A stretch of 63,779 bases of DNA, filler included, from Hausera hauseri (GCA_046269625.1; 11 parts of 11 records of this genome joined end to end with filler, not necessarily neighbours in it); one strand, 5' to 3'; shown: positions 3,677 through 63,779, counted from the whole stretch's first letter. The notes: generated by a model from the sequence alone, not told the origin. Translations and numbers: made by a program.

Positions 3677-3699
3677 TTGATTGACAGACAGACAGACAA

Positions 3700-16305: not shown

Positions 16306-16323
16306 GTCCTGAAAGGGTCGCAA
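16306..16323 (-). promoter_or_regulatory. Primer-binding site (tRNA-Arg type, degenerate)
   Basis: TTGCGACCCTTTCAGGAC, 2 nt after the LTR end TAACA; compare 42088-42105. Confidence 0.7.
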
Positions 16324-16325
16324 AA

Positions 16326-18959: not shown

Positions 18960-19099
18960 TTTACTTACCAATCTGAAATAAAAGTAAATAAGATTATTCC
19001 TAAGACAGATTCGTATTTCGAATTGAAATATTTGCACTTTCTAATGACAGAATAACCAGATGTGTAGTTGTCAGGTTATTTTATCATATAAATCACTTT

Positions 19100-29770: not shown

Positions 29771-30905
29771 AATTTAATTTCATCTCAACCATCTCAACAG
29801 ACAATTATACAGCATGTTAAACAAAGCAAGATGGTTACTTTCAGCAAATACAGAAGAGGAAAAAATACCGATAAAATTCAACGTCTCGTCCATACAAAGA
29901 CCCATTAGTTAGCTTACACCATTCTGCTTTGTCTGCTTACTTTCTCCTTTCTACATTTTATCTTCTTACAGCCTTGTTTTCGTAACGGGAGGTAGTGTGG
30001 TGCTGCGGAATCGGGCGCCACTACAGTCTACAATTCCATATTGTCGAAAAACGTATGGTGTTTGTAAACGAAATGCAAAAACCAGATGACAATGTATCCT
30101 AATCCTACATAAAAACATAATTAATTGAATATGTTACTGTGTAAATATGACGACAATCACTCTCTCAACATTTCTCCGTTTGATAACCGTCAATTTTCAC
30201 TTCAGAAGAGAAAATCGGATTTTTACTATCAAATTAACAATTCTCAACGATTTCAGTCTTCAAATCCGAGCTATGTTCACACAAATCATTTGCGGCTGAT
30301 GAAGCCTACATGAACAAGAGAGTCGTCAAGGACGAATTCGATTGCGCAATAGTCAATATAACAATTGAGAATGATGGTTGCATGTACTGAAGTCTAGGTG
30401 CTCCCACAAAATTGAAAACGAAAACGAGCGTCTTAGAAATGCTTCCCTTAATTAACTGTCAAGAGAAAGACTTCAATGAGAAAGGAAATTGTTTTAGGTT
30501 TATACATTCTCTCTGGGTGTTTTGAGACATTTAGCGGCAGAAATCGAATGAAAATAGTAGCTTTAACAAACGACTGTTCCGGAACATCTGGTTAATAACG
30601 CGGATCAGTACATCTATTCATAAGACGGTTTTTTGTTTTGAAGATTAATTGGCAGTTAAAGAGGAAATTTTTATGAACAATCATTGATCAGTTTGATTAT
30701 TTTTTGGATGTTATTCTAAGAGCTACTATGATTTTTAACAGTCAGTTTCTTTTTTATGAAAGTTTTTATTATAGGCTATTAAAAATAGACTTGTAAATAT
30801 AGCGATTGAAAATCAATATTTTGTAGTTTAAAGGAAATAAACGTTTGTTATAAAAGTGTTATCATACTTACATTTCGGGATTTATATATATATATATTAG
30901 TGATT

Positions 30906-33900
30906 CCAGCCGGACGTGGTTAGACTTTCATGCGGCTTGGTTGAAATCAGATAATATTGTCGACTCGTTTCTTAAAGCAAACAGTTTGCTTATACTGTCG
31001 CCTTCTAGCATTAAGTCGCAGCTTCCCAATTTATCAGAAATTTTCCAAAGTAGTGACCCATATAAAACCTCTTTAACTCTATTTTAAAAATCACCGAACC
31101 ATCCCTAGATAACATTATCCGTAAATATTTTAATGACAACAGGGTAGGAACATTGAAACCCTCAGAATTTCTACAAACCTCACTAACTCAATTGAGTACC
31201 CTTGGCGTTAATCAAGCAAATAACGCCGATTTACTACGCAGATATTTTCTACAGTCTTTACCAAGAGACATACGCGCACTATTGGCAATAGTAGAGGACA
31301 CATCATCACTACAAAAACTAGCACAACTGGCTGAAAAAAGCCATGAGATTTTACATGCACATACAGCCCCTTTAGTAGCCGCTGCGTTACATACACCAAC
31401 AACTCAACAAGCTAGCGACATAACTAATCTGAACTCACAGATAAATTCTTTGAGTGCCGAAAACGCCAACATACTTCAAGCAATTTCTGCACTCACGTCA
31501 AAAATCAAAGCTTTGGTCATGCCTAGACGAAATCGTTTCGATGCGAACCATAGCAGCACCTCATCTCAAAATTCAAGGAATGCGAGGTCACCTATACGGT
31601 CAATGGTGTGCTACTACCACAGCAAATTTAAAGACAACTCAACTAAATGCTGCCTAGGTTTCAGATTTTATGCTCCTCATTTCAAACGACCCGACATTAT
31701 TTGCATTTACCATAACAAATTCAATTCTAAAGCACATAACTGCGTTACAGGTTGAACTTTCGTTAACCGATCTAATTCACCACGACCTACTTTTTTCAAC
31801 GACATACATCCCGTGCCTCCAAAAAAACTCATAAAGCCGCCAGATGTTTAGGCACATGCTGGCACAGGCAAATGTTTTTCTTATGATAGCCGTACGTATG
31901 CCGTTTTTACATTAAAAGCATCTTTAACCTCCGATCCTAATCAATTAATCAACTTCCTAATTGACTCCGGTGCAGCTGTTTCTTTATTACCAGCATCCAT
32001 CAAAACACTATCCATCTCTCCCTCCAAGACAAAATTGTATACAGCTAACGGCCAAGAATTACGCATTTTCGGTACGTCCAAGGTTTCATTCATTTTACCA
32101 CAATTCTCCGACATTTTCAATTGGACATTCATCGTTGCCGACACACAATCTCCAATACTTGGGTCTGATTTCTTAACTTTATACAATCTCCTCGTAGATT
32201 GTAGACAACGTCAGATAATCAAAAGAGGTTCAACAAAACCGACCTCTGCAGATAACCAACCGATCATGCAACCTATCTCGCCTATAAAATCGATATTAAA
32301 AGAACCATCGGCCAACGCAAATAATAACGTCATTAATACCAATATAAATAATCCAACGTTTTGTTGCAGTTCGGTAATAGAGGAACAAAAAACGTTCACA
32401 ATGACGATTTAGGCGACTCGATTTCTAGCGTTTCTCACACTAAATCCAATCAGTCCACTGCCATAACAACAACAGCCTTTACTACAATTAACCAAGAAAT
32501 GCAACAATATCTAACCAAATCTTGTATCCATACAATTAAAAAAGACCCAGCATTTCGACCGGCTAACACGACGCTTCATCATATCATCACAGAAAGCCTT
32601 AGGCCCGTTAGGCAGAAACTCCGTCCACTTTTACCACGCAGTCGACAAGCAGTATAAGCGGAATTCTCTGCACTTGAGCAAACTGGCATTATGAAACGCT
32701 CTAAATTACCATGGGCATCACCATTCCCCGTCGCCCCAAAGAAAGATGGTACATTCCGTCCATGCGGTGACTATTGAAAACTTAATAATGTCACAACCAT
32801 GGATGCTTATCCTATACCGTTGATTAAGGATATATTTCATTCTTTACACAAGACTACGATTTATTCAACCATAGATCTCGAAAAAGCCTACCATCAAATA
32901 CCAGTAGCACCAGAATACATCCCAAAAACGGCCATTATAACACCTTTTGGTCTTTTCGAATACGCATTCATGCCGTTCGGTTTAAATAACGCAGCACAAA
33001 CTTTCCAACGGCACATTGATTCAGTTCTTTCAGGCTTGCCATTTGTATATCCATACATTAATAATATACTAGTCGCATCGGCATCGCCCAAACAACACGA
33101 AGAACGTCTTAAATTAGTTTTTCAACGCTTGCAATTTGTAAGTGAACTTTTCTAAGTGTTCATTCTTCCAAAAGAAGTCAATTTCCTTGGCCACGTTATC
33201 ACACCTGACGGTCACAGTCCATAGCATGATAGAATTCATCAATTACGAAACATCGAACTACCCAAAACCACTACTGATATGCGTAGTTTCTTTGGGACTT
33301 TACATTTTGTCTATAAATACGTCCCACACTGTAGCCAGTTAACTGCTCCTTTCGCTCAACTAGGAGCAGGGCCGAAGTAAAAGCTCATATATTGGACGCA
33401 AGAACTTATTAACCAGTTCGATGAACCTCGCGACAAGCTCAAAACAGTCGAGATTTTAGCCTACCCAAAACCTGATGCTGACCTCATTTTAACAATCGAT
33501 GCATCAACTACAGCAGTAGGAGCGGTTCTTCATCAAATATCTCAAGGTATAAACGAACCGTTAGAATTCTTTTCACGCAAGCTGCAGCCACAAGAACGCC
33601 ATTATTCTACCTTCGATATAGAACTTCTGGCTTTTCTTTTAACTCTGAAACATTTTTCACATTTGCTTATCGCTCGTTCCTTCATCATTCAAACTGACCA
33701 CAAATCTCTCTTTCACGTAATGAACATGAAACAACCATCACTGCGACGAGAACACCATATCTCATATCTGTCAACATTCAACTTCAAAATTTGCCATATT
33801 TCTGGCACAGACAATTTAATAGCTGATTTCTTATCGCGGTCAGTTGGAGCAATTAGCGTCACACCAATTTTCCCAAAGGACCAGTTAATCCAAAATCCAC

Positions 33901-35181
33901 TTCCAATGAAATTCAGAAACAATATAAATCCGTGCAAATCATCGATGGAATAACCATGGATACTTCGACACCTGGATAACATTTGCCAATTTTGGCATCT
34001 CCCCTCCAACAAACTGCATTTCAACATGTTCATTCTTTGCATCACCCAGGTTCCAAGGCTATATTCCGCCTCCTCAAACGTTATGTAACATGGTCATCAG
34101 TGAGGTCTGACGTACAGAGCTGGGTTAGGCAATACGTAGCTTGCCAAAAGTTCAAGGTAGCAAAATATCTTAAGCCACCATTATTTCATTTCCCCTGTAC
34201 ATCCCACTTTGTCTCAGTTCACATAGATATCGTTGGCCCATTACCTTCCTATAACGGCCACCAAATCATCTTAACAATGATGGATTGCGCATCTCGTTGG
34301 CCGGAAGCCGTCCCTTTGCGCTCCATCAATATAGACTCGATTGCAATGCATTCATAAGGAGTTGGATTAGCCGGTTCGGTTCATCTCGCTACATAATTAC
34401 AGACCAAGGTCCTCAATTTGAGTCGAATCTATTCAAGTCTTTAGTTAATCGACTGGACACAAATCACGTACACACAACTCCATATCATCCCCAGTCGAAT
34501 GGCTTATTGGAACGCTTCCATCGCACTCTCAAAATCTCGTTAAAAATCCTGGCCGAAACTCATAAGAATTGGACAACCATCCTCCCTTTTGTTTTACTCG
34601 AGTGGAGCAACACGCCGTCTACTATTACCGGTTGCGCACCCGCTGAAGCACTTTTCGGTACCACAATTCGCGCACTCTTTGAACTCACCAATTTGGACAA
34701 CACACCAACTAACGAAATAATTAGGTCTGCACAAAGCCACTTTGTCCAGTTAAGCCAGGATTCTTTCTGCAAAATATTACATGGTGACAAAACATACTTA
34801 CCCGACTCGCTATTTAATGCAAAGTTCGTGTGGATAAAAAATCCTTCACCTTCCGGATTTCAACCAAACTACTTAGGACCATACAAAATTCTAAATTTAA
34901 CTTCACACATGGTTACAATACTCAAAAGTGGCAAAGAACAAAATGTGCAAATATCTAACGTAAAACCTGTCTTTTTCGTTAATGACACACAGGATCCAAC
35001 AACTAACTCTGCACATACCTTCCTTGACTCCTTCCATCCTTCTTCTGTTCTACCTCCATGACAACCTGCTGTTCCAAAACCCGCATCAATACAACAGACT
35101 ACGTTAAACGACATACCGACTACTTCTCAAGCTGCTGACACGTCAAATCAAAATTTAACTTTATACCAACCAACTCAGCAA
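30906..35181 (+). mobile_element. CsRN1-like gypsy copy 2 (5' truncated, runs to the spacer)
   Basis: Colinear with copy 1 from CCAG.CGGACGTGGTT.GACTTTC. FLIDSGA, LYTANG, WTFIVAD, AYHQIPVAPE, MPFGLNNAAQTFQR, YINN (degenerate YxDD), HIDIVGPLP, TDQGPQFES, NGLLERFHR. Confidence 0.92.
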
Positions 35182-35281: not shown

Positions 35282-36280
35282 TATTAGCACTGATGACGAT
35301 GTATCCGGTTAAATATTTGATTAGTTCAATTCGTACATCCTCTTCATCTTCAGCTTGCAGGATTATAGAGAGAGATAATCCGTGTATATGCTCGTTTGTG
35401 TTTGATATCTTTCTTCTGGTCTTTTGTAAAATATTGGTTCTTCTAAGCTGGCATTTTCATCTATGTGTTGGCAAATTTCTACTCCCATAACTACAGGAGT
35501 TAGTAATATCTTGAAATAGATTTCTGTTTGGAATGCTGGATATTTGATCCTTAGTGACATTTTCGGTTCCAAAATGGAATTTTGAGGGTAAAGAGCATCA
35601 TAACAATCGGATTGTGCTCGAAATTGTATTACGCCACGAGCTAAATGTATTAAAACTTTTTCAAAAGGTGGTTGTAGGTGTAATAGCTCTTTTAAATTGA
35701 TATTGTAACGTGCTTCTTCTATTTTTAAGATTCGGAACATTCTATCGTTAATCGTTGAACTTTTTAGATCATTATCAATATATTTGCTGTCTGTATACAG
35801 GACATCCGTTGAATTTTCTGTTTGTTTGATCAATTGGGCATAAAATTTTGATGGATACAAGTTTTTTGAAATGTCGAATATTAAAATGGATTTGCCATAC
35901 AATTCTTGCCAGGATCTATTTTGCAATCGATATTTTTCGCTATCTTGTAAATTTTCTAAAATTTGGGACTGTAATTTCAATTTCTTATTTTCTGGTAAAT
36001 CATCAATATTGATCGCCTTCTTTCTTACTTCTTGTAATGGCTTCGTTGTTCTTATTTCAGTAAATGAGGCTGTATTGCACAAGATTCCTCTTGTTAATCC
36101 AAATCTCTGAGTTGGATTTTGAAACGTGAAGGTGTTTGTAAATTGTTTTGTAGGTAGTATAACCCTTCTCTTAGGGTTAGGGACTACCGTTTCAGTGGAA
36201 TTATCTGAATCGTTATCAGATCCGTCCAAGTCAATATCTGTTTCTTCTGACTGGTTCTCTGCTATTTGAAAATGATTCAT
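35282..36280 (-). pseudogene. Accessory ORF of a divergent subfamily of the complex gypsy (305 open codons, then a DEDDh-like segment in a shifted frame)
   Basis: LKELLHLQPPFEKVLIHLARGVIQFR aligns with LRNLLRFELGHHNDVYIHLAEGEVYYR (ORF 18384-19037). The shifted frame reads RRKISNTNEHIHGLSLSIILQAEDEEDVRIELIKYLTGYIVISAN. Confidence 0.65.
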
Positions 36281-36289
36281 TTTGCTGAA

Positions 36290-37020
36290 AAAGGAAATAA
36301 TAATGTAGCGGGTCATATTTAAGGGCCCGTTAAAGGGGTAGGTGGTTACCCCACTATGTTTTTTCATTGGTGTAATTGTGTTATTAAGGTACTGCAAATC
36401 TATTGGTTGAGATTTGCTTTCATCTTTTGCTGTGTGTGTTAGCGCTATTGTTTTATAGTGTGTGTGTAATTTTGTATATTTATGTTTTAGATCAATTTTT
36501 TCATATTCCTCAACGTCGACTATCCACTCCACACTTACTAAGTAAATTAGGTTAGTTGACAGTAACAAGGTCTTATTCATGATAGTTCTTTTTCTAGAAT
36601 ATCTTTTTAACTCCATTATTACAAAGGGTGTGGATATGGACAGTAAAAGAAATATTATTATTATGGACGGTACCAGGATTTTTAACATATTAGTTTGGAT
36701 GCTAGAACTAGTAGTTAATCGCGTTGGTGTATAAACTAGAAATTCTTTATGTAGTAAATACTTTTTGGTTCTCGTTTGAGTTCTAGTTGTTTGTGTCGTG
36801 TTTTTGCATAATTTTGGGTGAAAACAATCAAATATTCATCATCAGGTTGGAGGTCATTACATCTGGTCATTCGTTCGTACTCTTTTATGATGGCGTATAT
36901 ACTATGATATTTTCCTACACAAGTTATGGATATTGGATCTTTTACTAATTGTAAGGTTTTAAACTCAATATATAAATCTGAGGGACTGACAATTACTTCA
37001 GGTATTTTGTGCATGTCCGA
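36290..37020 (-). pseudogene. C-terminal part of the FN3-like type I membrane protein (ectodomain, S/T stalk, TM, basic tail)
   Basis: PISITC...TRCNDLQPDDEYLIVF; TTSSSIQTNMLKILVPSIIIIFLLLSISTPFVIMELKRYSRKR. Confidence 0.58.
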
Positions 37021-40402: not shown

Positions 40403-40569
40403 NNNNNNNNNNNNNNNNNNNNNNNNNNNNNNNNNNNNNNNNNNNNTTAATTAATTAANNNNNNNNNNNNNNNNNNNNNNNNNNNNNNNNNNNNNNNNNN
40501 NNGAGTATTACAGCAAACAAAAGATTAAAGAAGCAATGCTTTTTGTCAAACTAATGCCTGCCTGACAAG

Positions 40570-41303
40570 TTTATGAGAATACTTATGTCTGGGAAAATCC
40601 TAATATGGAAAAATACGTTGCCCCGATATTTCAGTTCAAAAGAAACGGTAAAATCTTAGTCCATGTGGATAAGTCAGTCAAGCTGTTGCTAAAGAAACAG
40701 TACCAAAAATACAAATCGACGGGTGAAGTTCCCCATTTAGATCGAGATACTATCAGCGATTGGACCCTAATAGCTGTGGGATGCGACCCTAAGAAAAGCT
40801 CGATAAATCCAAAGCAGAAAAGAATATACGCTTACTTATATCATGATGGAGAAGGGTTAATAATGGAGCCTATTGAGATTTTGCTGAGAGTGGATCTTGA
40901 TGACAAAAATTGGGCGAAAGAGGAGAAAGAATGCCCCGTATGTGAGGCGAACCTGAAGCAAGGATATGTAGTGTTAAACAACCCGGATTCTCGACATAAA
41001 TATTGCAGAGACTGCTTAGAAAAATGGACAATAGATAACGGATAAAGCACATGTCCAGTATGTCGAGCTGAAGCTGCAGACCTAAAGTACTACTTGAACG
41101 GTAGTTATACTAAAATAGTTAGGATCAAACCCTACCACAGTTATGAATTGGAGCCGAATCCCAGAGAAAGCCAACCTAGTACCAGTTCGAGACCCAGTCT
41201 GAGACAACGAATGGAATTATTACGAAGGCCCCGTCATCGCGGCACCTCACCTGACGCAATTGACACATTCGAGGATGCCGTTAAGGGAGGAGAAATGTCG
41301 TAA
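40570..41303 (+). pseudogene. C-terminal half of the gypsy accessory ORF with RING-HC finger, ending inside the PPT/LTR
   Basis: WTLIAVGCDPKKSSINP (matches 17323-17589); CPVCEANLKQGYVVLNNPDSRHKYCRDCLEKWTIDNG*STCPVCRAE; ...TSPDAIDTFEDAVKGGEMS*. Confidence 0.8.
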
Positions 41304-42085
41304 ATAGTCTCAAATAGAGTTGTATAAAGTCACGAATAGCGTCAATAGAATCTGTATAAATATTTAATCAGCAATGTAGTGAATTATGTACGGTTACAAT
41401 TATAAAGATAGAAGAAATTGTACATTATTGATGAGAATTCGAAATTTGTATTGTATTGATTCAAGTTAACAAAGAAGAGAAAATGAATTATTTAGTAAAC
41501 TAATTTTTTAGTAAACTACTTTTTTAGTAAACTAATTTTTTAGTAAACTAATTTTTACTGAAACGTAAAACAACTAAATAGAAAATGATGTCAGATGAAT
41601 AAATGATGACAACTGAAAGTATAAAAGGGAGAGTTTGATAAATGAGAAGAGATTTTTTTGAAGTTTTCCAGCGACTATAGTGAAGCTAATTGAAACCGCA
41701 AAATCATTCGAAGAGTATCATTGAGATAGACATTTGATTACATTGACATTGTGATACGCTCGATATTGTACTAGAGAAGCGGTAATTGTTTATTTGAATA
41801 TATTTTGTTTGTGTAAATTCTTTATAGTTTCCTTCACCCCTTAAGGGTGATTAGACATCAATAAGATTAAAATCAGTACTTAAAATAAATAGTTAATAGA
41901 GAGACATTATTAAATTTTATTGCAAAGGACCGCAAGCATTATCCAGCAAAGAAATTTATAAAATCGATAAGGTACATTCAGTCTATCCGATAACGGTAGA
42001 CCGAGCCACATAGCAAATAAACTTCAAGTGAAATTTACTGTTATATAGTGGGAGACGAATAGGGGCCACCCCAATATATATAACA
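41296..42085 (+). repeat. LTR (TGTCG...TAACA) preceded by PPT AAGGGAGGAGAAA (41283-41295); contains 4 x ~16-bp TTTAGTAAACTA repeat (41491-41556)
   Basis: PPT-TG start and CA-PBS end. Confidence 0.88.
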
Positions 42086-42087
42086 TT

Positions 42088-42105
42088 TGGCGACCCTAGC
42101 AGGAC
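42088..42105 (+). promoter_or_regulatory. Primer-binding site complementary to a tRNA 3' end (Arg type)
   Basis: TGGCGACCCTAGCAGGAC; resembles the TGGCGACC tRNA-Arg PBS of 412/mdg1-type elements. Confidence 0.8.
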
Positions 42106-42464
42106 AGTCTGTACCTTGCTAGACTTTACTTATCAGAGTTAATTAATTACATATCGGCAAACAGCGCCATTCACATCAATTAATTAGATATTTGGAAAAT
42201 AAAATCGATTTGGGATAAATAATTCAGAAATTGTTTGAGAACAAACATTGATAAGTCGAAAATAAATCATATATTAAAAGACAATTCACCTATACGTGAG
42301 ACACGTCGTAATATATATATAGAGATACAGAAAAAGTAGATAAACGTTTAAATTCCGAGAATAGAATTAAACTAGACGTTGTCGCGCACAATAAACAGTT
42401 TAAAATTCCGCTTTAGAAACCTAAAATAACTAAAGCTAATTTAGAGCTAAATAATATAAATAAA

Positions 42465-44612
42465 ATGGCAGCAGACAATCCACTAATAGCGCAGAAGCTA
42501 GACATTTTCACGTTCGACTCTCTAAACCTGCCGAAATATGACGGAGACACAGATGGGCTTAATGAATTCTTGAGGACTTATAAATTGCACGAAAAAGTGC
42601 TAGCCTCACTCCTGAAGTAATGATTAAACGATTGTCGTTATATTTGAAAAACTTAGCCACTGGTGCTTATAGTGAGCTCACAAACGATGAGAAGAAATTT
42701 TGTTCCTCCCTGGTAAGAGCGATAAATCGCAAACTGTTGCCAACCGTAACGCCGCAACAAAAGTTTATGGCATTTCAGGACCGAGTACAGCAAAAGGGTG
42801 AATCAGTAACCCAATTCGCATTTGCGTTGAAGAAGTTTGCTAATAGTTATATTAGTACATTGAAGATCGCCAACGTAGCTAAAGCTAAAACAGATGCAGA
42901 ACGTGACGTCGCAGAGAAGGCCTCACCACCAGATTTAGATGTTATGATGACGACGCAACAAATAAATCGTATTTGGTCGCGAGACGTAGTTAAACAATTG
43001 ATTTTGGCTAGACCTAAAAATTTTGAAGGAACGTTACGACTAGCTCAAGATTTAGAAATGGTGCTAAATAGATACGCCAGACAACGATAGAAACGACAGG
43101 AATAATGATCGAAATGACCGGAATGATAGAAATCGTAATGCTAATCGTAGAAGAGACGACAGACGATTTTCGGGTAACAGAAATTATGGAAATAGAAATA
43201 ATAATGGCGGTTACAGAAATGGCAGAGGTAGTAATTATACAAATACGAACAGATCAGACTCTAACTGGAATAGGAATAGAGGAAATTATAAAGGCTCAAA
43301 CTACTCGAATCAAAACGGTGATAACCGGAATAACGATAATAGGCGAAATGCCGACAATGCGCAAAGTTTGCCAAACCAGTATAATAAGGGTATAAATAGA
43401 TCTAAGTCACCAGTGAACGAAGACGGTCGACAGAGAGTCGGCAGAAATGGGAATTTGGTTTGTTTTACTTGCGGTAAAGAAGGACACATTTCAAGGTCAT
43501 GTCCAAATCCGCGTAGCTTTTCATTTAGTGAACCAAATAAGACTAATATGATTAGAATCCATGAGAATCTAGAAGCAAAGTATGTCGTTCGCGGAGACAC
43601 AAGCACTACCGTTGATATAGAAGATTTGCGAAAATTCCTAGATGCTCAGCCGGATACCACTAACTTACAAATTCTGATGGCTAGAAAAGAATTACGGAGA
43701 TAAGTTGAGACTTCTAGAAGTATATCACGGTTTAGCCGAACCAGAAACGGAATATAAACGGGCAATAGCACCTCAACGAAGTGATATGACACGGAAAAAG
43801 GGTGTTCTGACGAGTAATAAGCCATGTGATAAACCAAGCACATCGACGGCAGTCGACTTAGACGTAGAACGTAAGTTTACAGTCGAAAAAGTAGCTACGC
43901 TTACTGAGGACGATGCAGCAGAAAAAGAGTTTATGGAGCCACTATTACTTAAAATTACGAAAAATTGAGGCCGTAGCCCTTCTCTAAAAACGAAACGAAG
44001 AAATTGTTCACGCTCCAAAATAACTAGAGAGAAAATTGAAAAAACAGAAAACCCAAACGTCGTTGTAGGAGGCGACACAGACCATAATTTGAATATATCA
44101 GAGATTGGTTCATTCACACCTGTCGGAACAGCGGAGTCTATAGAGTCGATTAACGAAATTAACGAAATTTGCCCACTTTCCATTAGTGTAGAAGAAACAA
44201 CGAATATTGACAATTTCGATCTTAAGAAGTGAAAAGTCCGACATTCATGGAAAAACGCCAATGAATTAAGGAAACTGAGAAATAAACGCGATGGACAGGA
44301 AATATTACAGTGTGACTTAGAAAGGCTTCAACAGATTTGCGAACAAGTAAACATATCCGGAAAAGAACAACAATTCGCAGAGAAATTATATAAAAGTTTG
44401 AAACTGCGTAGCAAAGGAAAGTTTGCGGAAGCAATTGATATAGAACAACCCGAAGAGGTACCGACCAAAAGGTTGTTAAAGTGGAAACAGGAATTATAAT
44501 CATAAATTAAAAGCGGAATAGAATTTTTAGAAGGATGGAATAAAAATGAAGACAGAGTCGACGTAAAAGTCACTAAAGCTCAGACATTACTATCTACTTT
44601 AGAAGCAAACCC
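42465..44612 (+). pseudogene. gag: gag (capsid, N/R/G-rich linker, CCHC knuckle) plus a >1.1-kb coding-like extension without protease
   Basis: MAADNP..LPKYDGD; RVQQKGESVTQFAFALKK; CFTCGKEGHISRSC (43461-43502); then an acidic, low-complexity reading frame up to the spacer. Confidence 0.85.
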
Positions 44613-44713
44613 NNNNNNNNNNNNNNNNNNNNNNNNNNNNNNNNNNNNNNNNNNNNTTAATTAATTAANNNNNNNNNNNNNNNNNNNNNNNNNNNNNNNN
44701 NNNNNNNNNNNNA

Positions 44714-45438
44714 GGAGAAGTCCTATTAACTTATGAATGCGAAAAAAGAGACGTTCCGATCAACGTAGAAAAAAAAGATGCATGTAAAAATTTCGGGTCA
44801 CTTATGAGAATATTCCGAGACTAGCGATGCCGCTCACCAGAGTATTATTGGCAAACTCAGCCGAATGAACAATACTTAAGGAATGCAAAACAAGCCTACG
44901 TGAACCTATGCTCCGACGTAGCGGAACCGATTGGATACGTTTACCTAATGGAAGCACTGCTGCAGTCCCTAGTAAGCTAACTGGAACAAATCTAATCAAA
45001 GGATTATCAAAAGACAAGTTCGAGGACACGGCCAATAAAGGAATTTATAAACCAAAAGACATAGAAACTTTTAGGCAATTCTTAGTATTTCCGCGACAAA
45101 GAACTTATGAACTGAATCGGGCCATGTCAATGGTCATGGACGACACCCGCTTTCAAGCAAAATGGAAATCGATACTGGGTGTTAATCACTATCAAAGAGT
45201 AACTTCAGAAATATTGTATAAGATTTGGAGAAGATTTCTAATTTTCGGACAAGCTGCATCTGGATTCCTAGCTATCTACTTTTTAGTCCAATTAATTAAA
45301 TCAGTAAATCAAGCCGTTATAAACGGATATAAAATATTCACATTAACAGGATTTTCCTGCAAAATTTGGACTGCAATTATCACACCCTTTGGAAAAATAC
45401 TTAAGGCCTACGAAGAAAATCGGTGGAAAGTGACGTAG
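44714..45438 (+). pseudogene. C-terminal third of a chuvirus-like (class III) envelope glycoprotein, located upstream of pol
   Basis: GEVLLTYECEKRDVPINVE..CM*KFRVTYEN....PLTRVL...C....P......W..LP......P..L...GIYKPKDI...FLVFP...IWRRFLIFGQAASGFLAIYFLVQLIK....INGYKIFTLTGFSCKIWTAI. This follows my recalled chuvirus G pattern; not run against a database. Confidence 0.72.
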
Positions 45439-45977
45439 AACGCCACGTCGGATACTATAATCGCAAACGACGAGTGAGGCCCTCGATTCTGTATAAACGT
45501 AAAGACAAGAAAACAATAACATGAAAGGATGATTCAGATGATGACGAGCCTAAGTGGGGAGAAGCGAATTCCAGAATAAAGATGCGCAAGATGTACTCAC
45601 TGATTAACGCCCCATTACCCATCATACCACCAACCGCACCAGTATACGAAGACTGCGACCGAAAATAGGTTATGTCATACAAGTCTAAAATATACCGTAA
45701 GCCCATCGATTATGAAGATTCTTATGAAAGAACGAAACAATATCGAGTTCTACGGAAAATGAACGTTATTGACCAAGGAATAACAAAAAGCGACCACGGA
45801 ATATTATACTCGAAAAGAATACCTCATCACATAGAGTCGGAATCAACCATCTGGGAGAACCCGAAACTGTGTTTGATTCTGGGACCACTGCCTCAAAAAC
45901 TGCTCATCGACAGTCGTGTCAATAAAATGGCGAATAATAATTTATACCCGAGCGGAAATTTAAGACAATTAATATAA

Positions 45978-48900
45978 AATATTGTTTCAACGATAAACGG
46001 ACACCGAGTCTCTACTATAAAACAGTCAAAGATAGCGTCAAAATGCCTCGGGACAGTAGCAGAAGGAAGACCTTTTGCAAAGTATACATTGAAGACTGGG
46101 AAGTATATGCCTTAATCGACACAGGATCAGAAAAGTCGTTTATAAAATAAGAATTAATACTAACCACACTGCAGAACCAATTATGCTCACGATTATCATC
46201 GGACACTGGTAGCATAGAAGCATTTGGACAAATGTCGAAGCCGAAATTTAAGTGGACTCCTACCGTTTATATGATGGGCCAAGAACTTCAACACGAATTT
46301 ACGATAATGGACCAGTTAACAGACGATGTAGTATTGGGTTACGACATATTGAAACAGATACCAGGCATGGCAATCGATGTGCATAATGGAAAATTACTCG
46401 AACTCGGACCAGTTAAAGGAACAAAGATAATAAAGAAAAGGAAACCGGGCGAAGTATAGATCCCGGTAGACGAAGACATTCCGCCCAGAACCGAAAGGAT
46501 AATTTTTGCACGGATGCGTCGAGACGAAGATCTGCCCGTATATTTTAAACTTTAAGAGAATATCAATCCAAAACTCATGTTTAGCAATATCCTATGTAGA
46601 GTAGCCACGGGACGTATACCTATCAGATTAGTGAACAATGCAACAACCCCCGTAAAATTGTAAACTAACATTACTTTAAATCACACTTGCAGAGTATCGT
46701 CAGTAACAATAGAAGAAAAACCATACAAGTGCGCTGAATTTCCACCTCACGTCAAAACCAAATTCTCTCCAGAGGCGTATTCAAGTTCTACGAATTACTA
46801 TGTAAATACCGTTCAATAATCGCACAAAACGAAGAAGACATAGGTAGAGCAAAAGCCCTGAGATTAAGAATTACACTAAGGAAAAAACCCGGATCGAATG
46901 ACGAAATCGATCTAGAAGAACAGAAAATTTCCAAATGGTACCCACCTCCCCATTCATTGAGACCAGAAATAACTAAAGATTAAAACGACTGTTAAAGGCC
47001 GATATAAATAAACCATGCTACCGATCATGGTACTCACCTATACTTATTGTTAAAAAGAAAGGAACCACGAAACATCGATTTTGTATAGATTATTTGGCAT
47101 TAAACACGCTTGTGATGAAAGATTCGTTTCTCATACCATCGGTAAAGGAAGCTTTTGATGGACTATCAGGACTGAAATGGTTTACCACTCTCAACTTACA
47201 ATCGGGATATTGGCAAGTGGAAATCGAAGAAGAAGGTCGATATAAAGCACCGTTTAAAACACATGATGACGTATACGAATTTAATATCATGCCTTTCGGC
47301 ATCACCACAGGATCAGCTATTTTTACTAGAATGATGAATAAGATGCTCATGGGGCTTGATTATGCTTTCGCATATTTAGACGACGTAATGATAGCATCAA
47401 AATATAGGACGAACACTTAAAGGACATTGACGATACACTCGTGCGACTGGAACAAGCAGGGTTGAAATTAAATCCAAAGAAATGCAAATGGGCGCAGAAC
47501 GCAATATCGTACCTCGGACATATAGTTGGAGAAGGACGATGAAAACCGGATAAATCCCTGCTAAATCAAATATCTCATTGTATGGAACTGCAGAATCAAA
47601 AAGAGTTAAGATATTGGTTAGGTCTATGTAGGTATTATGCCACTTACGTGCCAGACAATTCGAAAATTAACGCACCACTATACCGCCTACTGAAAAAAGG
47701 AACTAAATGGAGATGGACGGCAGTGGAACAAGAAGAATTCGGCGAAAATGAAGAAAATTTTGACAAGCGAAACAGTTCTAAGATACCCTGATTTTATCCT
47801 ACCATTCATCATTAAAACAGATGCAAGTAAAGAAGGTATAGGATACGAATTAGCTGAGAAACAAGAAGATGAAGAACTAGAGCATCCAATAGCCTATGGA
47901 AGACGCTCGTTAAACAAAGCAGAAAAGAATTATTCGGTTACCGAATTAAAAACGCTAGCCGTAAAGGAAGCACTATGACACTTTAATGTCTATGTCTATG
48001 GACAAAAGATTATAATAGTGACCGATCACAAAGCAGTTACGACATTGAAAGGACAAGTTTATAACTCAACATGTAGATTAAACCGTTGGATCGAGGAGAT
48101 CTCACTATATAACATTGAATTCCAATACAAACCATGTAATAAACACGTCGACGCTGACGCGCTGTCAAGGTTAAGAACAAAAACCAGTGGGATTACCACG
48201 ATGAAGAAAACGCAACTCGAACAAATAATTGAACTTCAAAGGACGCTAACCTTGGATAAAACGATCAAGATCACAATAGAGCATGCTAAAGATAAGGTTA
48301 TTCAGCAAATTATTGAGTTCGCTCAAAATGACAAAATACCCAAAGGACGGCAACTGAAGAAGCATCTACAGAAACACGGACATAAATATCGCGCATCGAA
48401 CCAAGATAATATCCTATATTACGAACGAAAAGGGAGAAAACTAATAGTCATTCCAAAAGGATTACGCATCAAAGTACTCATGGCTGAACACGATTCATAT
48501 TTAGCCGGACACATGTCTTGGAAAAAGACAATGGAAAGCATATTAAATAAATACTATTGGCCAGACATTTATATCGATGTAAAGAATTGGGTAGGTGCTT
48601 GCGAAGTTTTTGCGACCAAACAAAAGAAAATGAAAGGCTACGTAGCAGAATTAAAACCCATAAGTGTACCAGATAGGCCTATGCAAGCTATGTCTATGGA
48701 TGTAGTGGGACCCTTGCCTAAAACTCATAAAAATAACAGATATATTCTAACATGCGTGGATCGATTAACGCATTACGTCAAATTGGTGGCATTATTAGAT
48801 TAAAAGGCAGAAACTTTAGCAGACTCAGTGGTAAGGAAAATTATCTGCAGATACGGACCACTAGAATAAATCTTGACGGATAGAGGGAAGAACTTCACGA

Positions 48901-49560
48901 GCGAATTATTTGAAAAAATTACCAAGATAGTCTAAATCGAACGTTTAACCACTACCGCATACCAACCTCAATGTAACGAAATTGTCGAACGAATGAACTC
49001 AACAGTTATTCGTTTAATATCAACAGTAGTGGCAAAAGACCAAAAGGATTGGGACGAATTCCTAGAAGGGACACAGTTCGCAATCAATACGACACCACAT
49101 CCAGCAACGGGATTTACACCGTTCTTTATGATGTATGGACCAGAGGCAATCTTACCCACAGATCTAGATATGACACCGTACGAAAAGGACCTCGAGGATC
49201 TCGAGCAAAACTTTGCCGCAGTGTTACAGACAAGATTGCAAAAGTGTTGGGAAGTTGCAAAAGCATTATCACTCGAATACCAGGAACAATATAGAAACAA
49301 TATGATAAAAAGACTAAGCCCCATGATCTGGAAAAAGGACACTGGGTTTATATACATTACCCAGTCGCGACGAAAGGTGCATCCTTGAAACTAACCGGTA
49401 CCGGAAGAGGACCATATGAAATCGTTCGCATAACGTCAACCACGGTCTATATTAACAAAAACGGTAAAAGGAAAGTCGTATCATTTCAAAGAGTAGTTAA
49501 AACAGATACAAGATCAGCTAAACGCTACAATTTAAGACAACGAGAAGCCAAGACCTCGTC
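45978..49560 (+). pseudogene. pol: pol of the complex gypsy (PR-RT-RNase H-IN)
   Basis: YALIDTGS; LGYDIL; LQSGYWQV, MPFGI, AYLDDV; KTDASKEGIG, NYSVTEL, TDHKA, HVDADALSR; EHDSYLAGH..C, SMDVVGPLP, TDRGKNF, GPYEI. Confidence 0.93.
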
Positions 49561-49809
49561 GATTGCTATCAGACCGGTATCTTACGCACATATAATTGTA
49601 GCCTTATCGTTGATTGCTGTCCTAACGCCTAAATCTAACGCCCAATGGTGGGTTGATGAAACTTCGTTGAGCGATATATATGGAATAAAAAAAATCTGGA
49701 TAAAATTTTCACTACCAAAAAGGTAACTCCCTAACACAAATCAGAACACAAAGACGAAAGGTTTTTACGAGCAATAAAATTAGATTATTTTTCACTAGAA
49801 GACCCATGT
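49561..49809 (+). pseudogene. Signal-peptide start of the integrase-fused membrane protein
   Basis: RYNLRQREAKTSSIAIRPVSYAHIIVALSLIAVLTPKSNAQWWVDETSLSDIYG, in frame with the integrase. Confidence 0.7.
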
Positions 49810-50799: not shown

Positions 50800-53700
50800 C
50801 AGTACTCATTTAAATAGTTGGTTTTCTCGTTGTTGCCTCAATTTTCCATACCGATCTTCCGGATAATATCTTCCAGAGAAAATATTTAATTTATTAGGTC
50901 GGAGTTTATAAAGGTCGAAATATATTTTATACTCATGACCTATCGGTATTTTACAACATGGATTCGGTATTGTGGACCCAATGCCACAATATTCTGGTAA
51001 TGGGGCTAATTTATTTAATTCGTTAAATCGAATTGAGATTGTCCGTTAACATTCCTTTCGTTTTGATCTAACATTCGTTTTTGTGGAACAGTTGATTTTT
51101 TTTTAATTGAATTTTACTTTGAAACGTCGATCAATCGAAGGTATAATTATTTGAGATTGTGGGTTCACTTCGGCATAGACCTCATTTGAATTTGGGAAAT
51201 ACAAATGGCAAGTGAGAATATGAGTATCCGTAGTTTACGTCACAATATTTTGTGTAATTACCTGGTTTGGAATCACAACTGATTATCGCTTTCCTCGTTT
51301 TATTAGGTAGTGTTATCTGAAATCTTCAAAAATTGCGGTATTGTTTTGTGTTCTTAATCCAACACACATAGATTGGGAAGTAAACTAGTAGGCCGTCATC
51401 GTTTGTAATAACTTGGTGTCTAGTTTCATGATTTCTTCAGCGGTCAATTTCTTTTCCTTTATTACTGTTTCTTGTTTTAATCCGCTTTTACGAATTCTAT
51501 AAACATCTTCTAAAGTAGTTTCATCGTCCTGCCACTGGACCTTAGTTTTCGGTATGTTCGAAGCAATTAATGACAATGGTAATATTATGTGCACGTGAGA
51601 TATTTGTCTGGGTATTATATTAGACCCTTTTGCTTCTCTTTTGTTACTATTCTGATGTTCGTTCTTCGATCGCAAATTATAACGTTTATTCGGTTTTCTT
51701 TCCGTTTTGACAACTTGAATTGACAGAACTCCTTCTTAACCATCTGTATTAATATAAACTGTAGTAGATGTCGTTCTGATAATCTCGTATTGTCCTCTTC
51801 GGGAACGAATCATCTTTAAAGATGTGCCTTTCCTGGATACTGGGTAGTGCACGTATACCCAATTTCCCTGTTCCAAATTTTATGGTTTCGCTTTCTTATC
51901 ATACTGCTTGTTAAATTGTTCTTGATATTCTTGAGATAATTCTTTAGAAATTTTCCAACATTCTGTACCCGAGAAATTTTGTTCCAAATCTTCGGGATTA
52001 ATTGTATATATGGCATCATTCATAAATCTGTCGGTAATATGGCTTCTATTCTATACATAATTAAAAATGGTGTGAATCTGGTTGTGGGGTATGGTGTCGT
52101 ATTAATAGCAAATTGAGTTCCTTCTAAGAATTCATCCCGATATTTTTGGTCTTTTGCGACTACTGTTCACAGAATACGTATAACAGTTGCGTTCAAACGT
52201 TCCACCATTCTGTTACATTGGGGATGGTATGTGGTCGTAGTTAATCGTTAGATTTCGAATATTTTGATAATTTTGTTAAATAGTTCGCTCGTGAAGTTTC
52301 TTCCTCGATCCGTCAAGTTCTTATCAGGAGGTCCGTACCTTCAGATAACTTTTCTTTCTACGGCTTCAGCTACAGTATCGGTCTTTTGGTAGACTAGTGC
52401 TATTAACTCCATGAAGTGAGTTAGCCGATCAATACAGGTCAGAATATATTTGTTATTTCTGTGGATTATAGGCAGCATTCCTACAATATCATTGACATAG
52501 CTTGCATGGGCCTATCTAGTACGTTTATTTGTTTTAATTCCGCTATGTAATTTTTCACTTTTCGCTGTTTGGATGTGCATACTTCATAAGTGCGTACCCA
52601 GTTTTTCACATCGATGTAAATACTTGACTCAGAATATTTATTGATTATTTTTAATAGTATCTTCTACGAGGACATAAATCCAGCTAAGTACAATCGTGTT
52701 CGGCCATTAAAACCTCTGTTCGCAATCCCTTTGGAATGACTGTTAATTTTTGTCCTTTACACTTATAGTGTAAAATATTTTCGTGAACCTTATCACTCGA
52801 AACACAGTATTTATGTCCATGTCTCTGTAAATGTTTCCATAGCTGGTGTCATATTAGTATTACATCCTTTTCTAAAATTATATAATCTGCTTGGTGACTC
52901 TATCCTTCTTCTCTTCTATCAAAATTATAGTTGCTTTATCCCATGTTAAGGTGCGTTGTTTGTCTACTAACTCTTCGGGTTGAGTTTCTTTCATTATAGT
53001 GATAGCATTCGTTTTAGTTTTTAACCTCGATAAGGCGTCAGTATCTACGTGTTTACTTACAGACTTATACTGAAATTCGATGTCATCACGAGATTTATTC
53101 AATCCATCGGTTGAGTCTACATGTCGGATTATTCGCTCTGCCCTTTAACGTCGTGACGGCTTTATAGTCAGTAACAATTATGACTTTCTGTCCATAAACA
53201 TAGTCGTTAAAATGTCGTAACACTTCCTTTACCCCTAATGTTTCTAATTCTGTAACTGAATAATTTTTCTCGGCCTTCTTTAATGAACGTCCTCCATATG
53301 GGATCGGGTGCTGTATCTCTTTATTATCTCGTTTCTGAGATAATTCGTATTCGATGCATTCTTTACTGGCCTCGATTTTCATTATAACTGGTAGATTAAA
53401 ATCGGAATATCTTAAGACTGGTTCGCTCGTTCAAATTTTTTTCATTTCGTCGAAAGCTTTTCGTTCGACGTCAGTCCACTTCCACTTAATTCCTTTCTTA
53501 AGCAAGCGATATAACGATGCATTTATTTTCGAGTTACCTGGAACATACATGACATTGTACCCACACAAATTTAACCAATGTCTTAATTCTATTTTTGAGG
53601 CTCAATATCATCTGATATTTTATTCAACAATGATTTATCTGGTCTTGATCTTCCTTCTCCGACTACATAAGATACTGCATTTTAAGCCCATTTACATTTC

Positions 53701-54180
53701 TTATAGTTTAGTTAAAATCCTGCTTGCTCTAATCGCATGAGTATATCTTCAATATCCTTTAAGTTCTCTTCTTCCGTTCGCGATGCTATCTTTACATCGT
53801 CTAAGTAAGTGAGCACATTATCCAATTTCATTAACATTTTATTCACCAATTTTGTGAAAATAACCGGTCCAGTTTTGATACCGAACGGCATGATATTAAA
53901 TACGTACACGCCATCGTGCGTTTTGAACGCCGTTCTACAACGGTCTTCGTCTTCCATTTTTACCTGCCAGTATCGGGATTGTAAATCCAAAGTGGTAAGC
54001 CATTTTGTTCCTGAGAGTTTGTCTTAAGCTTCCTTTACGGATGGCAGTGGGAAAGAGTCTTTCATCATGAGAGTGTTCAGTGCTCTATAATTGATATAAA
54101 ATGGATGTTTTGTAGCACCCTTCTTTTTAACGATAAGTATCGGCGAATATCAAGATCGGTAACTTGGCCTAATATATCTT
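50800..54180 (-). pseudogene. pol: Further copy of the complex gypsy pol (RT-RH-IN) plus fused signal peptide/ectodomain
   Basis: SPILIVKKKG, DLQSRYWQV, TYLDDV, NYSVTELE, HVDTDALSR; RYNLRSK...RQISHVHIILPLSLIASNIPKTKVQWQDDETTLEDVY. Confidence 0.9.
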
Positions 54181-59817: not shown

Positions 59818-62606
59818 CATCACTGTCCTTAATAATGAAAACAAGTGTTTCATATATGTCAATCTATCAAAACTCGTAGCGGATCAAAACCATGCTTCAC
59901 GAGTCAAAGTATACAGAAAAATCGAGCACAAGTATGACTTCCAATGTACTAAGTTCACGCCATCCATAGATGAAGTCAAAAATTCGGGCGACTCAACAAC
60001 ATATCAATCAAGATCTTTGGATTGTATGATGAGGACAAATTCTATCCGCTACAAGTGTGTGATGTGGAATTGGAAGATCATAGGGATCTGCTCTTGCAAG
60101 ACGGCAGAGTGCGTCTAGTCACATATTAAATTACGAAACATACATCAATAATCGAAATATGCAAAAGATGCCTGTCCCATTTCAATGTTGATGCAGCAGT
60201 GAACAAGCTGCAGGAGCACAATATATACTGCATCAACAATTATTGTATCAGATTAGAATTTTTCAAGGAGGACGACATCGAATATAAGGAGTTCGAGAAG
60301 ATGGTGAAAGTTTTAATAGTGATCTATTGAGACTTTAAAGCTATACTGAGTCCAGTTCAGAGCTGCAGCCTTAATCCACAACATAGCAGTGCAACAGTAT
60401 ACCAATATCATGAAGTCTCATCATATTGTATGTATGCCACAGGACTGGACAAGTACCCATTACTATTCAGAGGTTCAAATGCCGTAGCACGTTTCATGAA
60501 GAGATTGGAAGACATGGCTCATAGAATTGAAATTACGCTGCATTAGCACAGGTAGTAGGATACAATGGCCATGTCAAAGAATGAACATGAAGAATGCTAC
60601 TTGTGCTTCAAATCACTCATTAAGGAGAATCATATAGTCAGGGTTATATAGGAAAGCATCTGCAACAACTAATATCTACTTTGTAGAACAGTGACATTTG
60701 TACCTGTAATATTCCACAACCTAAGTGGATATGATTCTCACTTTATTGTTCGAGAACTAGGAAACATTGAAGTAATCCCCAACAGTGAGAAGTATATCAC
60801 CTTTACAAAACATGTTGGAAAAATCCGGTTTCACTTCATAGAAAATTTCCGATTCATGTTCTCTTCACTTGACAACTTAGTGAAAAATCTCCCATCAGAA
60901 GAACTCAGGAAAACGAAGTGGTTCTTTCCAAATACATTTGATCTAGTAAAAAAGAAAGCAGATTTTTTGTATCATTACGTCACATGAGGGAAAACGCAGG
61001 ATGAAACAGCTCTGCCGACCAAGAAGGAATTTTACAATATCCTCTCACACCGTGATATCAGTGATATGTACTGTCACCATGCCTAAAAATGTCTGGGCGG
61101 CATTCAAATGCCAAACAATAGGTGAATACAGCGACATATACTTCAGAACGGATGTGCCGCAGCTGATGGATGTATTTGAAAGCTTCCGGGATGTGACATT
61201 AACGGGCCACAAGTTGGATCCATGTCATTTCTTTACCGCTTCAGGAATTAGTCGGGCAGCAATTATGAGATATACCGGTATTAGACTGCAGATCATGAAG
61301 GATTATAACATAATCCTCATAATTGAGAGAGGCATTAGAGGTGGAATATGCCAGCTCATTCACCGATATAGTGAGGCCAACAACAAGTACGATCTATCCA
61401 ACCCATCATCCTATTTAACATAGCTAGATGCCAACAACTTATATGGATGGGCAATGAGAGCCCCCTTGCTATATGATGACTTCAAGTGGATCGAGCATCC
61501 TGAAAACATCCCTATATTGGACCTGGATCCCACTGGAGATACGAGATACATTCTGGAGTTGGATATGAAATATCCGGATTCTATTCACGCAAGGTATTAA
61601 CAGCTACCTTTCCTCCCTAAAAGCAAACCTCCGCCCCATGGAAAGCTTATAAAGCTGCTTTGCCATCTGGATAGCAGGGAGAGGTATGCAGTTCATTGCA
61701 TCAATCTCCAGAAGGAGGTCAGAAATGGACTCCGCATCACGAAGATCCATCGGTTCCTGCAGTTCAGCCAGTTCAACTGGCTACAGCCGTACATAGACCT
61801 CAGTAGGAAGCTGCGGGCCAATGCCAAAACGACTTCGAAAAGGATCAATTTAAGCTGTATAATAACAGCGCTTTTGGCAAGACGATGGAAAACATCCGCA
61901 GCAGGATCAACATAGAACTGGTCTGTTAGTGGAAGCAAGCCAAGAAGCTGATAGCCTAGTTGCACTTGTACAGCAGCGGCATATACACGGAGTATTTGGT
62001 CAGTATTTATATGCTCAAAACATAGCTCGAGTTCAGTAAGCCAATATGTGTGTGCATGTCCAACCTGGACTTGTCAAAGACCTTGATATACGACTTTCAT
62101 TACGACATCATGGTCCCCACATGCTAGTCTACAGAGCCGACGTAGATGTATAGTGACAGTTTCATTTATCAGATCCATTCGAAGGACATCTATGCAGACT
62201 TTGCTAAATTGACTCAGAATATGTATACATCTGACTATCCAAACGAGCATCCCAACTATTCAATAACCAAAATAAGGTCATTGGGAAATTCAAAGTCGAG
62301 GTAAATGGGGCAATTAACTCGCGATTTGTGACGCTGCGGAGCAAAATGTACTCAATCGATATATGTGACCAAGCAAAGAAGCATGCTAAAGGGTTTCAAA
62401 GATTCAAGAAGATCACTTTCGCGTATTATGTGAGAGTTATGCAGGAACAGACTCATATTATATCAGAGATGCAAAGGATCCAGTCTAGGGATTGTAACAT
62501 CCATACATTAACACTGCATAAGAAAAGACTAGATTGGATGGATGACAAGAGGAAGATCCTGAGCGATGGAATTCACATACTACCCCACGGACATGTGGCA
62601 TTGTAA
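59818..62606 (+). pseudogene. polB: Maverick protein-primed family B DNA polymerase
   Basis: IY*DFKAIL (ExoI), FHNLSGYDSHFI (ExoII), TDVPQLMDVFESFR (ExoIII), GIRGG, LDANNLYGWAM (motif A), FKLYNNSAFGKTMEN (motif B), YSDSFI (eroded motif C), LRSKMY, DDKR..LPHGH. Confidence 0.93.
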
Positions 62607-62799
62607 ATATTGTTATTCATTGTTGTTCATTGTTTAATAAATGTTGTATATAAATATCGTGTTGTCTTCTTGATCAAGTAATGTGGGATATAGGATACGA
62701 CCAAGTAAAACTAAGTAACTACTATATAGGTTAAGACCAACTTATTTCATAACACATTTATTTAGTAACAATATAACTTTGACATAGCTCTAAACACTT

Positions 62800-63260
62800 T
62801 TAGTGTGTGTGTGCTTGTCATTGCTTGTAAAATGTAAGTAACCTGAGAAAAGATATATCCCAGATATATGTCAGTATGCTTGTGCATGTAAAATGTAAGT
62901 AACTTGAGAAATGAATGATTAAGATATATGGTGTGTGCTTATGTGCATGTACATGTCTGTGCATGTAAAGTGCAACTAACCTGAAAAAAGGTATATCTCA
63001 GGTATATATGTCAGTGTGTGTATGTGTGTGCATGTGCATGTATGTGCATGTAAAGTGCAACTAACCTGAGAAAAGGTATATGTCAGTGTGTTTGCAATTG
63101 TGAGTGTTTCTCTGTGTTTGTAAAATATGTGTCCTGAGAAAATGTGTAGCTCAGATGTATGTATGTGCATGTATGTAAAATGCAACAAACTTAGGAAAAA
63201 TTATAGCTTAGTTATATGTCTGTATGCTTGTGCATGTGTGTAAAATACAAGTAATGTTTA
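62800..63260. repeat. About 6-7 degenerate 57-85-bp tandem repeats (GCATGTAAA.TG.AA.TAACCTGAGAAAAG.TATAT..GTCAG)
   Basis: Anchors near 62840, 62901, 62978, 63063, 63132, 63188. Confidence 0.8.
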
Positions 63261-63437
63261 GCTAATATGTGTAATATGCTGATAATATAGATTGGGTAAT
63301 ATAAGAACAATTTAGGTTAAATACAAGATAGATCATTTATATGAGATATATCTGTAATTATTCAATAAATCAATACAATGCGCCAATACATTTATAAATA
63401 AAACTAAGACTTGTATTATTCTGTCATTATTTCAAAA

Positions 63438-63779
63438 ATGCGCAGTACACGCCCAATTTTTCTCGAGGATAGGAACCATTTCAATGGAAGAATGCTAACA
63501 TGTAAAGATCATATATTCTGCATTGATTGCCTCAAAACTTGGATGCGATACAACAGTATTTGTCCAATTTGTAGGACAGAATGTTATCATGTCGTTGTTC
63601 AAGATGACTATGAACAGGTAATATACATTGTATTGGTGCTGCCAGCGATAATTCATTCGGACGATGATGAAGACAGTAGTAGAGGAAAAATGAGAGTTCT
63701 GGCACAAAACCCTATAGTTCCCCTTGAAATTGATGCGTTTAAACAAAAGTTCATTTCACGAATTGATATATCGGTACTT
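63438..63779 (+). CDS. RING-HC finger protein (probable E3 ligase), open to the window end; first two Cys substituted
   Basis: MRSTRPIFLEDRNHFNGRMLTCKDHIFCIDCLKTWMRYNSICPICRTE..., with TATAAATA at about 63392. Not in the ORF track because it has no stop in the window. Confidence 0.72.
   Translation, partial: MRSTRPIFLEDRNHFNGRMLTCKDHIFCIDCLKTWMRYNSICPICRTECYHVVVQDDYEQVIYIVLVLPAIIHSDDDEDSSRGKMRVLAQNPIVPLEIDAFKQKFISRIDISVL

Follow-up and report, generated by a model that had tools for sequence, protein, structure and literature searches.

Can the envelope gene (env) of a long terminal repeat (LTR) retrotransposon stand between gag and pol, rather than downstream of pol? The question is raised by a stretch of DNA from Hausera hauseri (GCA_046269625.1), 63,779 nucleotides in length and hereafter called the window. 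The first-pass annotation of the window had placed a chuvirus-like fusion glycoprotein between gag and pol of a Ty3/gypsy element, had taken captured env genes always to lie 3' of pol and had found no described precedent for a gag-env-pol order. According to our analysis, positions 44713-49809 very probably represent a decayed member of a multicopy family of Ty3/gypsy-type LTR retrotransposons; in this family a chuvirus/gB-type env directly precedes protease, reverse transcriptase (RT), RNase H and integrase and likely follows gag. The layout is not a new design. It has been published, as far as the accessible portions of the two papers go (Arkhipova and Yushenova, 2019, PMC6431247; Chary and Hayashi, 2026, eLife, PMC13524379), so that the assumption of an env always 3' of pol is out of date and the window element is a further example of a known arrangement. 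Eleven pieces make up the window. Between them stand ten copies of one 100-base linker, N44-TTAATTAATTAA-N44, which are presumably artificial joins. The piece that carries env and pol holds the following features:

44713-49809, plus strand: env-pol piece, with env fragment, linker, protease, RT, RNase H and integrase colinear
44714-45438, plus strand: C-terminal part of a chuvirus/gB-type env (end of the ectodomain and membrane anchor), from PF24664, profile, tblastn frames and hydropathy
45439-46108, plus strand: coding-like env-protease linker, PTAP at 45630, LYPxxxL at 45942, in a frame other than those of env and protease
46034-46360, plus strand: aspartic protease, ALIDTGS at 46109, internal stop, tblastn matches to the protease regions of P0006, P0007 and P0154
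46977-48180, plus strand: RT and RNase H, frameshifted, YLDD at 47373 and DAS at 47820 (RVT_1, E 9.6e-17; RT_RNaseH, E 7.3e-6)
48450-49560 (approximate), plus strand: integrase (zinc-binding, core and C-terminal parts; Integrase_H2C2, E 2.2e-15), with stops and a frameshift
49568-49726, plus strand: signal-like hydrophobic segment after integrase (hydropathy 1.85), the same segment being found in a sister copy at 20241-20762, minus strand

The env fragment begins at the edge of its piece; it is interrupted by one frameshift near 44760-44790 and, upstream of 44869, by internal stops. All glycoprotein-like motifs named in the first-pass annotation were located between 44714 and 45292 (GEV 44714, VTY 44797, TRVL 44836, GIY 45040, FP 45088, WRRF 45226, FGQ 45244, SGFL 45259, IYF 45274 and LIK 45292), together with the protease motif ALIDTGS, and the hydrophobic region that it had noted corresponds to one membrane-like segment at approximately 45232-45320. 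The open reading frame (ORF) at 44869-45438 matches the Pfam family PF24664 (Monjiviricetes fusion glycoprotein) with an E-value of 6.9e-22 and 77.6 bits against a cut-off of 27, and named chuvirus glycoproteins are among its protein matches (P0013, Lishi spider virus 1 glycoprotein, E 9.4e-13), which bears out the proposed chuvirus-like identity. The glycoprotein of chuviruses and of BEL/Pao elements belongs to this same family, and mosquito BEL/Pao elements carrying it are reportedly known from work of Dezordi et al. in 2020. The PF24664 cluster was also the first match in the Atlas, with a very high score and a recognition value of 2199, under the mark of 2300. When 50 relatives were combined into a profile, the fragment matched it at profile positions 391-646 of 686 (E 1.6e-41), and nothing else in the window did so significantly; the N-terminal part of env was not found there, and by comparison with four relatives some 360 ectodomain residues are absent at the piece edge. 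The fragment is divergent, with at most about 30-32% identity to its relatives. Word-based protein searches with the env ORF yielded none of 482 and none of 64 candidates, pattern scans confirmed none of 112 metagenome and none of five viral contig stretches, and Rfam gave no matches. Assignment to the class III fold would rest on PF24664 and on the accessible portion of PMC13524379; a narrow literature search found no paper on chuvirus G as a class III protein.

The glycoprotein, a coding-like stretch, protease, RT, RNase H and integrase do follow one another within one contig, as had been claimed, and tblastn matches of the relatives P0002, P0006, P0151 and P0154 are colinear along 44714-49612. 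The pol order, supported by Pfam and tblastn, is also that of BEL/Pao elements; all close relatives found are gypsy-like polyproteins. Approximately 670 bases separate the env stop from ALIDTGS, which places env inside the 2000-nucleotide limit used for GAG-ENV-POL elements. The stretch between them looks coding, one frame having three stops in 216 codons, while each of the other five has 6-16. The absence of element boundaries between env and protease also held: none of five patterns for primer binding site (PBS), polypurine tract or LTR ends is present in 44713-46150, and self-BLASTN gave no LTR match there. Nor is gag hidden in the linker, since Pfam had no match for 45669-45974 and the 670 bases gave no sign of a gag-like or knuckle sequence. 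The linker would form the cytoplasmic tail of Env. Its PTAP and YPxL-type motifs resemble late-domain motifs, which recruit the host ESCRT (endosomal sorting complexes required for transport) machinery. Among 11 non-redundant relatives, seven have a YPxL-type motif in the linker, where shuffles predict 1.28 (P0008 and P0151 were left out as near-duplicates, and P0157 because its env was unaligned); in the window linker the YP motif precedes the protease motif by about 55 codons, as in relatives. PTAP and PPxY are each found in one of the 11 linkers and are not conserved. YPxL-type motifs are present in 13 of 35 stand-alone glycoprotein tails as well and are therefore not special to env-first elements.

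The relatives also bear on the order. With env as a query, phmmer returned 151 proteins at E<=0.001 from 1.84 billion representatives; 20 of the best 150 of these (the 13 best and seven long ones) were scanned with Pfam. In nine of the 13 best, env leads into a Pfam aspartic protease within a single ORF. The other four are P0005, with a weak Bcl-2 match and then env, P0009, with env and no Pfam protease, a WD40 protein and the Lishi spider virus 1 glycoprotein. P0007 contains CCHC (267-281), env and protease in this order, and P0025 (rank 25) contains Retrotrans_gag (79-173, below the cut-off), env and protease. The cluster members P0151 (4844 residues) and P0154 (3003 residues) encode env, protease, RT, RNase H and integrase in a single ORF. 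Relatives have a hydrophobic segment before the ectodomain and another after it, and then 70-330 residues to the protease. The usual order also occurs among the matches, as P0108 (rank 108) has env after integrase. Envs of retroelement polyproteins outscore the chuvirus glycoproteins (E 6.6e-21 to 4e-13). The WD40 proteins P0012, P0048 and P0058 were dismissed as chance matches. A search with the RNase H-integrase fragment gave 25 matches among 736 candidates, and the best of them, P0157, has env before protease. Several env-first relatives (P0001, P0006, P0007, P0151, P0154 and P0025) carry at least two aspartic-protease-like domains, in the env-RT interval or after integrase, and the window copy carries one. 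The knuckle-env-pol polyprotein P0002 (HBK71150.1) was deposited as a hypothetical protein of Flavobacteriaceae from a metagenome bin and is likely from an animal contig binned into a bacterial genome.

Phylogenies of both genes had been suggested with the original claim. In the env tree (33 rows) the window fragment groups with 12 polyprotein envs and P0089, apart from 19 others including the named chuvirus proteins (support 95/82); P0005 and P0009, which lack a Pfam protease match, are among its rows, and the 20 'other' rows were picked by hand. The RT tree joined the window RT to env-first elements weakly, as detailed below. An endogenous viral element of non-retroviral origin, that is, a chuvirus fragment, was rejected: env groups with retroelement envs and is colinear with pol.

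One public sequencing run (X1; share 0.22), possibly from the source sample, was compared with the window; its contigs are short and its depths are not equal to copy numbers. The env-pol piece is matched by 15,828 contigs, which cover all 30 of its 30 bins, and 13,248 of them are below 95% identity. One contig of 411 bases, with 50 differences, spans 45758-46154 and so runs from the linker into the protease motif. Sequence of env, linker and pol is thus carried by many diverged copies. Together with the layout of the relatives and the trees, the contigs support env-before-pol as a probable trait of a multicopy family and not a one-off, which is what the first-pass annotation had supposed.

The gag side lies on the preceding piece, behind one of the fixed linkers:

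40503-44612, plus strand: gag-side piece, with RING-like ORF remnant, purine tract, LTR-like segment, PBS-like motif and broken gag
40566-41303, plus strand: RING-finger-like accessory ORF remnant directly before the purine tract (zf-RING_2, E 7.5e-4, below the cut-off)
41296-42085, plus strand: LTR-like segment, TGT...ACA, with a purine tract before it (41283-41295) and a PBS-like TGGCGACC after it, at 42088
42465-43703, plus strand: gag, broken by frameshifts (capsid-like part, Asn/Arg-rich part and one CCHC knuckle at about 43460-43510; zf-CCHC, E 7.7e-7)
43704-44612, plus strand: coding-like stretch after the knuckle, ending at the piece edge (nine stops in 370 codons versus 29 and 36 over 43501-44612)
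44613-44712, no strand: fixed linker N44-TTAATTAATTAA-N44 between gag piece and env-pol piece
15504-20834, minus strand: sister copy, with integrase end, remnants of the post-integrase membrane ORF, unknown ORFs, RING-like ORF, purine tract, LTR, PBS and gag start
51385-54170, minus strand: second sister copy from RT to the post-integrase segment, 70% nucleotide identity over 2539 bases to 47013-49533

The claim that env lies between gag and pol consequently stands in one half: env precedes pol within a single piece, and gag is found on another piece. Two gag fragments match only P0009, at the N-terminus of this gag-env relative, among 181 proteins (E 3e-4 and 2e-6). No protease or env was matched in the 1.1 kb that follow the knuckle on the gag piece, and comparison of this stretch with 13 polyproteins gave nothing significant; nor did a search at the end of the piece reveal a remnant of a Bcl-2-like domain or of an env start. 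The LTR-like segment and the PBS-like motif are present on the gag piece, and the pol piece is without a 3' LTR. What ties this gag to the env-pol family is the sister copy at 15504-20834, because it holds both this gag and this integrase, with 72% nucleotide identity to 49194-49533 (the integrase end) and 70% to 42017-42957 (PBS to gag). An upstream position of gag is favoured by this link, by the nine of 13 relatives with env followed by protease and by the gag domains before env in P0007 and P0025. The gag-env-pol order of the family is thus likely from sequence comparison, while it is unproven in this assembly. In the second sister copy neither env nor protease was found upstream within its piece. 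With two sister copies of about 70% identity in the window and thousands of diverged contigs in run X1 the family is multicopy, and its size, summed from the pieces, is estimated at roughly 13-14 kb.

Several observations weigh against our interpretation. Gag is joined to env in no sequence seen of the window family: what stands at the junction, 44613-44712, is the artificial-looking linker, and neither the gag piece nor the env-pol piece is spanned by a contig of run X1. No two of env, linker and protease share a frame, and a stop closes env at 45436-45438. With further stops and frameshifts from RT to integrase, the env-pol copy is dead; a single polyprotein is unreadable in it because of this damage, and for the same reason of frames and stop the single ORF is deduced from the relatives only. 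In the RT tree, which has 31 rows, a long-stemmed pair made up of the window RT and its sister stands beside six env-first rows, with weak support (80/61); one row, P0152, was labelled env-first by cluster membership only, and P0157 falls outside the env-first clade. The window env is itself a long branch (2.05), the placement of which is unsure. Twenty-four of the 25 pol relatives list no env, in a search limited to proteins of 481-2000 residues. Finally, in a comparison with structures in PDB, the env profile found gB chains at non-significant E-values of 0.26-0.96, below two chance matches to glutathione transferase.

How else could these sequences be explained? Env may precede pol as a separate ORF, the stop and the frame changes being genuine and Pol being made by frameshifting or splicing. 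The terminal stop of env and the other frames of linker and protease would fit this, as would the position of the window family as a divergent sister of the single-ORF relatives. However, stops and frameshifts occur throughout the copy, also inside RT and integrase, nine of the 13 best relatives read from env into protease, and the linker retains one open frame with its YP motif as far from the protease motif as in relatives; we therefore regard a separate ORF as improbable. It is less probable still that the gag piece and the env-pol piece come from different subfamilies or loci and became adjacent by concatenation, the true order being env-gag-pol or the gag being another one. A fixed linker does join the pieces, other pieces of the family are on the opposite strand in the window, and elements with an ENV-GAG-POL order exist in mites, according to the accessible portion of PMC13524379. 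Yet the stretch between env and protease lacks gag-like sequence, the sister copy joins this gag and integrase with about 70% identity on both sides, and the gag piece continues for 1.1 kb beyond the knuckle without reaching a protease. If the two pieces were different copies of one family, the gene order would stay the same. Scarcely credible, in our opinion, is a one-off fragment of a chuvirus glycoprotein, inserted in or misassembled beside an ordinary gag-pol gypsy element. Named chuvirus glycoproteins are indeed among the matches, but the envs of retroelement polyproteins outrank them, and it is with these envs that the fragment groups in the env tree; diverged contigs, too, are numerous over env, over the linker and over pol. 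An env-before-pol retrotransposon, likely with gag upstream, thus accounts best for the locus.

Similar elements have been described, and the comparisons made here are by description, from the accessible portions of the papers. The Burro elements of planarians have a mononegavirus-like env between gag and pol, and it is in frame (Arkhipova and Yushenova, 2019; PMC6431247). Similarly to the window family, Burro and GYPSM1 have an env with matches to mononegavirus fusion glycoproteins between gag and protease, and they carry accessory domains linked to ubiquitination; the window family likewise has its RING-like ORF, but at the 3' end. In Burro, Bcl-2 precedes env, and P0005, among the best env relatives, has its weak Bcl-2 match in that place too. 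Burro elements are giant, with a single ORF of 4,800-5,100 residues that includes BIR, MATH, Bcl-2 and ankyrin domains, whereas the window family looks compact, with one CCHC knuckle; none of these four domains was found in the window ORF fragments scanned, in which the gag-env interval is incomplete. No named Burro sequence was among the search matches. GAG-ENV-POL Ty3/gypsy elements with an HSV/gB-type env (HSV, herpes simplex virus) were reported from Nematoda, Bryozoa and Platyhelminthes and are not monophyletic (Chary and Hayashi, 2026; PMC13524379). The supplement of that paper, as far as available, lists nine flatworm elements, some with up to 215 copies. These 'ancient errantiviruses' combine a Ty3/gypsy pol with an upstream gB/chuvirus-type env, as the window family does. 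They are intact, whereas the window copy is dead and lies outside the 98%/98% copy criterion and the intactness used there. The accessible main text makes no mention of a polyprotein, in-frame arrangement, late domain, fibronectin or Burro. It cites Sacco et al. (2022) for non-canonical endogenous retroviruses of nematodes, reportedly with ENV before POL in a metavirus, again as in the window family, and with a glycoprotein of the RNA-virus type. The chuvirus glycoprotein differs from all of these in being a stand-alone viral gene or BEL/Pao cargo, and its named representatives are in the other half of our env tree. As the gene order has been published, what the locus contributes is a divergent, decayed family, one more in a known group.

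An intact member of the family would presumably encode one polyprotein, of which Gag would stay cytosolic. An internal signal anchor would send the glycoprotein ectodomain into the endoplasmic reticulum, where signal peptidase could separate Gag from Env; the membrane anchor would then return the chain, so that protease and the other enzymes would begin as the cytoplasmic tail of Env, to be cut free from it by the protease of the element itself. The PTAP and YPxL-type motifs of this tail may recruit the ESCRT budding machinery of the host; fusion of the particle with another cell would be the role of the trimeric glycoprotein. Behind integrase, a second signal would give rise to a further membrane protein.

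The segment at 49568-49726 is likely the start of such a second membrane protein. Remnants of it (signal-like segment, Cys pair and membrane segment) are seen at 20400-19150 (minus), 49568-49726 (plus) and 51735-50800 (minus). All four full relatives of the env-first RT clade (P0002, P0006, P0151 and P0154) have a second signal-like and membrane segment after integrase, and the more distant P0157 has none. The post-integrase domain may be fibronectin-III-like, a lead given by a fairly high Atlas score and taken as no more than that. Rather doubtfully, one could go further and regard the env-first clade as a design with two surface proteins, of which the window family would be a deep-branching, RING-bearing lineage. 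The polyprotein would then supply both of them, a gB-type fusogen from the part before Pol and, from the part after integrase, a membrane protein that is fibronectin-III-like; the latter might serve in attachment or as a decoy of a host receptor, by analogy with the receptor-binding partners of herpesvirus gB, and late-domain motifs would have moved from Gag to the Pol-carrying tail of Env. Such a design, if true, would be one not yet described, and a narrow literature search found no paper on a post-integrase membrane protein in such elements. The YPxL-type motif of the env-protease linker and the post-integrase membrane protein are testable features, for which intact copies elsewhere are better material.

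In the sister copy, two ORF fragments of 218 and 166 residues lie between the membrane ORF and the RING-like ORF (19040-17730, minus); Pfam had no match for the 3' ORFs of this copy. The RING-like ORF ends at the purine tract in two copies (40566-41303, plus; 17607-17041, minus) and is possibly E3 ligase cargo. The remnant at 40566-41303, which is 38-49% identical to 17583-17044 (minus), is read by us as the 3' end of a preceding element of the same family. Both 40566-42957 (plus) and 17583-15506 (minus) present an element 3' end, the purine tract, one LTR, the PBS and the next gag. A single LTR between the end of one element and the next gag may mean that elements lie head to tail in tandem with a shared LTR, or that the assembly was joined through the LTR. 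The same LTR ends occur in the sister copy (approximately 17043-16326, minus); the two LTRs agree at their ends and poorly inside, and the interior at 41325-41735 has a depth of 10-15 in run X1 versus hundreds to thousands around it.

Other elements share the window. An unrelated gypsy element that has gag and pol but no env is present in two tandem copies at 25545-35180 (plus), which share 84% identity over 4.3 kb. At 35366-36835 (minus) there is an open frame of 490 codons that starts close to a hydrophobic segment and is unmatched in Pfam. ORF remnants at 561-4883 and 59819-63779 (both plus), judged by eye, resemble Polinton/Maverick genes, namely integrase, capsid-like ORFs, a protein-primed DNA polymerase and a RING ORF.

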